Made by a program: the position numbers and the translations under genes. Below, one piece after another: positions 10,255 to 10,400 of a stretch of 64,000 bases of DNA (the stretch's first letter is position 1; each line of letters begins with the position of its first letter). The stretch lies in NCBI RefSeq assembly GCF_032062105.1, contig NW_026936820.1:1-64000 (forward strand), written 5' to 3'. The DNA is from Saccostrea cucullata. Lineage: Eukaryota. The notes beneath the pieces are model-generated. The model was not told where the DNA came from, did no database searches, and saw only the letters and a list, made by a program, of their open reading frames with translations.

Positions 10255-10400
10255 TGTTCAATACACGCGGCTCACGACAGGTGCGAGCAGTCAATAGGGG
10301 ATACTTACTCCTCCCGGGCACCTGATCCCACCCCGTGCTTTATGCCCTCTTCAAATATTTGTATTGTTTCTAGATTTTTTTAAATCGATCACTGTTCGTT
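10255..10400 (+). mobile_element. Naiad-type 3' UTR motif, second subfamily
   Basis: cacgacaggtgcg...aggggatacttactcctCCCGGGcacctgatcccacc. Confidence 0.65.

Follow-up and report, generated by a model that had tools for sequence, protein, structure and literature searches.

Two variable palindromes in a predicted 3' UTR pseudoknot of Naiad Penelope-like elements: a probable RNA pairing signal and a putative self-cleaving RNA

Features of the locus

The DNA analysed here (the window) covers positions 1 to 64,000 of contig NW_026936820.1 of Saccostrea cucullata (assembly GCF_032062105.1). Three tandem frames of glycosyltransferase family 11 (fucosyltransferase-like) lie at 45728-46918, 51330-52628 and 60105-61199; the first two match PF01531, and the third is interrupted by a stop near 60575. 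An uninterrupted protein kinase frame of 276 aa (PF00069) is on the minus strand at 3814-4644. Tandem arrays are found at 52742-53098 (21-nt units) and at 21363-21751 (units of about 97 nt), and two long inverted repeats at 22453-22774 (arms of 153 nt, 16 nt apart) and at 54319-54929 (arms of 156 nt made of Naiad RT sequence, 299 nt apart), the latter resembling the inverted truncated copies described for Penelope-like elements.

The hexamer that was flagged in an earlier note lies inside the 3' UTR of a Naiad Penelope-like element. When compared by eye, the Naiad_Sglo consensus (File S5 of Craig et al. 2021, PMC8557442) matched the family-A motif of one copy (locus L014) across about 95 nt, and a longer copy (locus L116) carries the DKA and RT motifs upstream of its motif copy. 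The DKA motif upstream of the RT core is a diagnostic feature of Naiads (PMC8557442). A comparison of a 175-aa RT piece with Pfam assigned no family. Naiad copies are 5'-truncated at many points and often stand in partial tandem. In the window the motif lies about 75 nt past the stop codon of a decayed RT frame, and this position indicates that it is non-coding.

A profile search of the window gave 19 regions at E < 1, and the best 18 were aligned (Table 1). Three of the 18 were truncated, deleted or ambiguous; the hexamer could be scored in the other 15, being palindromic in seven and not in eight. The seven palindromic ones are the six hexamers named in that note, all of which were confirmed at the same motif position, directly preceding CACC (CCATGG at 11602, 35941, 50313 and 62439, CCCGGG at 10313 and CCTAGG at 63466; the copies at 50313, 62439 and 63466 are on the minus strand), together with TCATGA near 61830.

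Table 1. Naiad motif copies and their parts in the window
Feature	Position	Strand	Remark
Decayed motif copy with the flagged hexamer	10268..10331	+	downstream hairpin disrupted
P1 strands of flagged copy	5' 10278-10283, 3' 10319-10324	+	
P2 strands of flagged copy	5' 10298-10302, 3' 10325-10329	+	
Broken 10-mer of flagged copy	10284-10293	+	
Flagged hexamer CCCGGG, palindrome 2 of decayed family-B copy	10313..10318	+	two transitions from CCTAGG
5'-truncated decayed Naiad copy	10867..11720	+	3' end of RT interrupted by stops, followed by the motif-bearing 3' UTR
Well-preserved family-A motif copy	11557..11650	+	whole predicted fold
P0 closing stem, predicted	11557-11566 with 11639-11650	+	
P1 stem, predicted	11567-11572 with 11608-11613	+	
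P2 stem, predicted	11587-11591 with 11614-11618	+	
P3 hairpin, predicted	11619-11638	+	
Palindrome 1	11573..11582	+	10 nt; overlooked in the earlier note
Conserved single-stranded blocks flanking P2 5' strand	11583..11601	+	RCAG 11583-11586, GCTYACYC 11592-11599
Palindrome 2	11602..11607	+	CCATGG, family A
Family-A motif copy	35896..35989	+	CCATGG at 35941; first unit of partial tandem
Second motif copy of the tandem	36741..36830	+	hexamer decayed; 845 nt downstream, same strand
Family-A motif copy	50270..50363	-	CCATGG at 50313
Family-A motif copy	62400..62489	-	CCATGG at 62439
B-type copy	63420..63500	-	CCTAGG at 63466; lacks about 11 nt including P2 5' strand

The copies starting at 35896 and 36741 form a tandem that would place two motifs in one transcript. 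Among 100 genomic matches listed, 4 same-strand motif pairs lie within 1 kb, against 0.3 expected from even spacing.

The copy at 63466 probably arose by local duplication, with siblings near 38420 and 55400 that are not palindromic. Three duplicated local blocks (38280-39334, 54633-56316 and 62900-63997, 71-83% alike) each contain this B-type Naiad copy with its deletion of 11 nt. This deletion form was rejected as an amplified subfamily, only 2 matches being found genome-wide, one of them in the window.

A constraint on protein coding, with the hexamer read as a Pro codon plus the next codon, would agree with the single frame that is open across the motif in several window copies. In both the window and the published consensuses, however, the motif follows the RT stop codon, and from family to family the segments vary in length by 1-2 nt, so that no frame is kept; this contradicts the reading. 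The coding constraint was thus rejected and is hardly credible.

Hexamer states within the genome

The 1.17-Gb genome of S. cucullata was searched with a 25-letter pattern having a free centre at the hexamer, giving 7025 exact matches, and 88 of the first 100 listed carried AT at the centre by hand count. When both central letters were forced off AT, 277 matches were obtained; the centres of 100 listed among these, also counted by hand, were TA (73), CA (10), GA (6), TG (5), TC (2) and CC, GG, CG and GC (one each). Letters flanking the hexamer sorted 286 copies into family A (156), family B (78) and an unassigned group (52), in shares that are biased because these loci were picked by pattern. 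The centre was AT in 122 of the 156 copies of family A, and TA in 49 of the 78 copies of the older family B. Of 58 matches to the B-type context, 39 had TA, 12 AT, 1 AA, none TT and 6 other centres.

The amplified hexamer states in this genome are thus CCATGG and CCTAGG only, with no intermediate, and what holds within the genome is one switch between AT and TA. Taken alone, such a single switch is weak evidence, expected about 1 in 3 times by chance; the strength of the pattern comes from the cross-species table of consensuses described below.

CCCGGG behaves differently. Among 17 genome-wide matches with C or G at both central positions, CCCGGG was found 7 times, CCGCGG 5 times and the non-palindromic CC or GG centres 5 times. 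CCCGGG is a double transition of the TA form and CCGCGG of the AT form. As self-complementary pairs stay self-complementary under any double transition, the palindrome is kept automatically, and CCCGGG is explained by decay. The 7 copies are about the yield expected of double transitions from CCTAGG, the two aligned CCCGGG copies are no more than 56% alike, and the flagged copy has family-B flanks and a broken 10-mer. CCCGGG was therefore rejected as a subfamily or selected variant, its count being at the level of decay, and the copy at 10313 is a decayed copy. The same artefact yields TCATGA, seen by hand count in about 24 of 100 listed among 223 double changes of the outer pair. CG centres occurred once among the 100 listed of 277, where 0.7 per 100 would be expected from decay.

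For the 10-mer palindrome (palindrome 1 in Table 1), no compensatory subfamily was seen within this genome, and 112 double changes at its centre resemble CpG decay. A candidate subfamily with a CATG centre was rejected: 4 of 9 CATG copies cluster, and 3 of those 4 are alike beyond the end of the element, as is likely for segmental duplicates. Further motif families in the genome were rejected as well, since almost all of the 71 matches obtained with a generic pattern proved to be double mutants of the main family.

Palindromes across species

Motif words were searched in the 54 Naiad consensuses of File S5 of PMC8557442, a search that misses words split by line ends. The motif was found in 12 of the 54, from a hydrozoan, bivalves, acorn worms and a fish, namely Naiad-1 and -2_Chem, CGi, Sglo, Olur, Tgra, Pmar, Naiad-1 and -2_Skow, Naiad-1 and -2_Pfla, and Cmel. 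It was not seen in the other 42 by word search, supplemented by reading of the 3' end in six of them (Mcor, Mgal, Bpla, Mphi, Scon and Amil). The motif is thus present in published Naiad sequences and undescribed in the main text that accompanies them, where 'palindrom' and 'dimer' do not occur (PMC8557442). A literature search, with subscription journals mostly outside its scope, found no description of it.

Palindrome 2, adjoining CACC, takes the 6-letter forms CCTAGG, CCATGG (2), TCCGGA (2), TGGCCA and CCTGGG in the consensuses, and in the remaining ones the 8-letter forms TGGTACCA, TTTCGAAA (2), TGTCGACA and TTCCGGAG. It is self-complementary in 12/12, perfectly in 11 and with a U·G pair in one; of the 36 pair cells of its central six letters, 35 are Watson-Crick and 1 is U·G. 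Its centres are AT, TA, CG, GC and TG. The 10-nt palindrome 1, directly 3' of the invariant CGGGTG, occurs as TGACCGGTCA (2), TGACCGGTCG, TAGCTAGCTA, TTGCATGCAA, TAGCATGCTA, CGGCTAGCTG, CCACATGTGG (2), ACTCTAGAGT, GCTCGCGGGC and ACACTAGTGT, with 57 of 60 pairs Watson-Crick, 3 G·U and no mismatch across the 12 consensuses; its centres are CG, TA, AT and GC, and only C4-G7 is fixed. Both palindrome centres therefore take all four Watson-Crick forms. These pairs were scored by eye from the supplement, and the counts carry no tree-aware covariation statistic. By letter permutation, the chance was 4e-4 for the 10-mer centre (9 distinct sequences) and about 2e-3 per hexamer pair. Both values disregard phylogeny as well as the choice between 6 and 8 letters, which was made by eye; the 12 motif families are related and may include horizontal transfers.

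Wherever the two palindromes depart from Watson-Crick pairing (4 cases in all), the sense strand carries G·U, which suggests RNA. This bears on a reading in which the palindromes are double-stranded DNA sites bound by a dimeric protein (a promoter factor, or the endonuclease that the element encodes) in co-evolution with each family. Co-evolving dimeric binders would likewise keep palindromes, and promoters are present in the pseudo-LTRs of Penelope-like elements (PMC6765202). Yet every pair of both palindromes other than C4-G7 varies across families, the four departures are G·U on one strand only, and the palindromes are embedded in covarying stems that are meaningful only in a single strand; we regard DNA sites as very improbable.

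Predicted fold and pairing energies

From a reading of the sequence, the motif is predicted to fold as a pseudoknot of about 95 nt, in which P0 is the closing stem, P1 pairs CGGGTG with CACCYG, P2 (4-5 pairs) is the crossing stem and P3 is a hairpin. The sense strand is taken as the folding strand by inference. The four core pairs of P2 are complementary in 12/12 families despite changes of letters, and complementary changes are found in P0, P2 and P3; between families A and B the letters of P0 and P3 differ while pairing is kept. The minimum-energy fold predicted for a real copy contains P0, P1 and P3. The fold energy is unremarkable (z of -1.7 for the sense and -0.8 for the antisense strand, the pseudoknot not being counted).

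In the 3' half of the motif the stems follow one another with hardly an unpaired base between them, and both palindromes are located in loops of the predicted pseudoknot together with the blocks RCAG and GCTYACYC, within which CAG and GCTYAC are invariant in 12/12 consensuses. The two blocks are a candidate catalytic or protein-binding core.

The isolated 10-mer was predicted to form no stable hairpin (+1.5 kcal/mol when forced) and a self-duplex of -17 kcal/mol, and cofolding sets the 10-mer duplex in a dimer predicted to lie 15.5 kcal/mol below two monomers. Since adjacent central bases cannot pair within one strand, a second copy is implied. We consider it quite probable, from the sequence patterns, that two RNA copies pair through the palindromes, either in trans or between tandem copies. 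The selection for pairing of RNA copies proposed in the earlier note is thus strengthened by the published consensuses and by the second palindrome, with the change that the copies may be tandem ones within one molecule.

A fold of a single molecule would account for part of these data: the 10-mer would be a 3-pair hairpin with a C-N-N-G loop, in line with the invariance of C4 and G7, the hexamer would be incidental, and palindromy would persist by descent and by the double transitions that preserve palindromes and lie behind CCCGGG, CCGCGG and TCATGA in this genome. Against it, paired transversions are required for the centre to switch between AT, TA, CG and GC, as it does in several phyla and in both palindromes, the hairpin is unstable when forced, and an amplified AA or TT intermediate is absent among the matches listed. 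We find this alternative unlikely.

Pairing between two copies, as preferred here, would be subfamily-specific in part at most. Of the two palindromes, families A and B share the 10-mer, predicted at -17 kcal/mol whichever families are combined, and only the hexamer distinguishes them; its self-duplexes were predicted at -7.8 and -8.0 kcal/mol and the mixed A/B duplex at -1.5 kcal/mol; the dimerisation specific to subfamilies that had been suggested is reduced accordingly.

Comparison with known RNAs

No match of the motif to Rfam was found at the gathering threshold or at E up to 10, and an Rfam twister search of good motif copies gave no match. A search of the genome with RF02684 also gave none, as did its control.

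The retroviral dimer-initiation signal is the apical loop of a hairpin in the 5' leader and is tied to packaging. The Naiad hexamer resembles it in being a self-complementary 6-mer that varies while staying complementary, and differs in lying in the 3' UTR next to a pseudoknot stem, with no hairpin presenting it. To our knowledge, no capsid protein has been described for Naiads. The retroviral model offered in the earlier note does not fit the site within a 3' UTR pseudoknot, nor the Naiad ORF, which is described as endonuclease plus RT (PMC8557442). From its sequence the motif would be a dimer signal in function, not a retroviral one by position or structure. In Ty1 RNA the contacts are likewise nested in pseudoknot loops, but they are made by two different complementary motifs, as against two palindromes in Naiad (PMC5454406).

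By analogy, a closer model than the retroviral loop would be the palindromic, dimer-dependent hammerhead of other Penelope-like elements. These hammerheads lie in the pseudo-LTRs; their loops are palindromic, and in tandem copies they probably act as dimers (PMC4209133, PMC6765202). Canonical hammerheads are lacking in Naiads (PMC8557442). The minimal type I hammerhead and the Naiad motif share the class of element and the position in the 3' repeat (PMC4209133, PMC6765202), as well as a palindromic segment and a tandem layout allowing two motifs to pair. They differ in that the Naiad motif has two palindromes (10 nt and 6-8 nt), whereas the hammerhead has one of 2-4 nt, and in that the Naiad motif is a predicted pseudoknot with four stems. 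Identity with the hammerhead was rejected, as the motif lacks the CUGANGA and GAAA core both in the window and in all 12 consensuses. Flags for a hammerhead core were raised in 1/12 motif families against 16/42 of the others (Fisher p 0.08).

Twister is, like the Naiad motif, a small multi-stem pseudoknotted RNA in which a stem of 4-5 pairs is followed by GC; in twister a U-A cleavage site precedes the 4-pair P2, which is closed by a sheared A-G pair and followed by GC (T2) (PMC5408937). In the Naiad motif, C-A-G precedes the corresponding stem and GC follows it, and after the partner strand of P2 there is an A (G in 1/12) and then no T1 strand. Mapping by hand could not place the twister core elements in order on either strand, and found in the motif no hairpin corresponding to twister P4, with its invariant G-C and U-A pair and the loop that forms T1 and T2. 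In HDV-like ribozymes P1.1, P4 and the C-bearing J4/2 lie between the 3' strand of P1 and that of P2. An HDV-like fold was rejected, as no base separates these two strands in the motif in 12/12 consensuses and in the window copies whose stems are placed in Table 1. With none of the hammerhead, twister and HDV cores mappable onto the motif, no catalytic residue was assigned.

The search was extended to other sequence collections. Viral contigs gave 5 unrelated matches in one search and none in another; the 4 matches in prokaryote genomes were all unrelated. Metagenome contigs contained 5 true B-like copies sharing one accession prefix, 4 with CCTAGG and 1 with CCTGGG. This metagenome family (L066-L070) has P3 letters of its own, and the contigs are likely host DNA of another bivalve.

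Proposed mechanism

We propose that the conserved motif in the Naiad 3' UTR would fold as a pseudoknot on the sense RNA, and that two motif copies would pair through the two self-complementary segments, the partner being either a separate RNA or the neighbouring tandem copy within one transcript. The paired motif may then be the active form of a self-cleaving RNA, and this self-cleaving dimer may fill the place that is held by hammerheads in other Penelope-like elements. Provided that the palindromes pair with a second copy, cleavage of the RNA by the dimer appears, by analogy, slightly more probable than its absence. For self-cleavage of the motif as such, which is putative, we see the chances as balanced, and for the whole explanation, a palindrome-paired pseudoknot dimer that is a self-cleaving RNA, as a shade under even. 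More tentatively, the motif could represent a new class of ribozyme that works only as a symmetric dimer, with two palindromic helices on one twofold axis and with family-specific palindromes serving as a code of self-recognition among Naiads from cnidarians to fish.

A non-catalytic role for the same dimer has a substantial though lesser claim, and we hold it to be somewhat doubtful. In this role the module would hold Naiad RNAs together at their 3' ends, and the RT-endonuclease would bind the pair, jump between templates and build the partial tandems. The palindrome evidence is the same for both readings. For the protein of a Poseidon element a dimer is predicted by AlphaFold2, and the Poseidon hammerhead is dispensable for insertion in vitro (PMC11167929); Ty1 RNA offers a precedent in dimerising via loops nested in a pseudoknot (PMC5454406). 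The absence of a cleavage imprint at 5' ends and in RNA reads is also in agreement with a module that only tethers. There was no pile-up of 5' ends at the motif among 122 copies, the ends being widely spread, and no sharp RNA ends were seen in the reads of 3 runs, whose libraries are unstranded and whose reads come from many diverged copies. For the hammerhead of a Poseidon element the same is reported (PMC11167929). On the other side, the invariant unpaired blocks and a junction with few spare bases would seem catalytic rather than tether-like, and the motif occupies the site where other Penelope-like elements keep a ribozyme. By analogy, a dimer-dependent self-cleaving RNA is narrowly favoured over the non-catalytic tether, because of the hammerhead precedent in other Penelope-like elements and the lack of a hammerhead in Naiads.

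Should the motif cut, its fold would be that of a ribozyme missing from every catalogue searched here. Should it pair without cutting, it would provide a dimer signal for a retroelement that has no described capsid, and might be a source of the partial tandems that are typical of such elements. In both cases, RNA pairing gated by palindromes would have originated on at least two folds among Penelope-like elements.

Other conserved segments of Naiads

A different conserved 3' motif is found in the mussel and clam Naiads of File S5 of PMC8557442 (Naiad_Mgal, Bpla, Mphi and Scon). Directly 3' of GAGGTT it has a palindrome that varies as TAGCTAGCTA, GGCGCC, TGATGCATCA and GGAGCGCTCC, and its downstream part resembles the twister core by eye. 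That a changing palindrome is present in this motif too is in favour of the explanation proposed above. The same file contains a conserved block just upstream of the Naiad ORF, GCTGGTGGA ... TCCCCGAG, in oysters, mussels, acorn worms and a coral, which is possibly another structured RNA.
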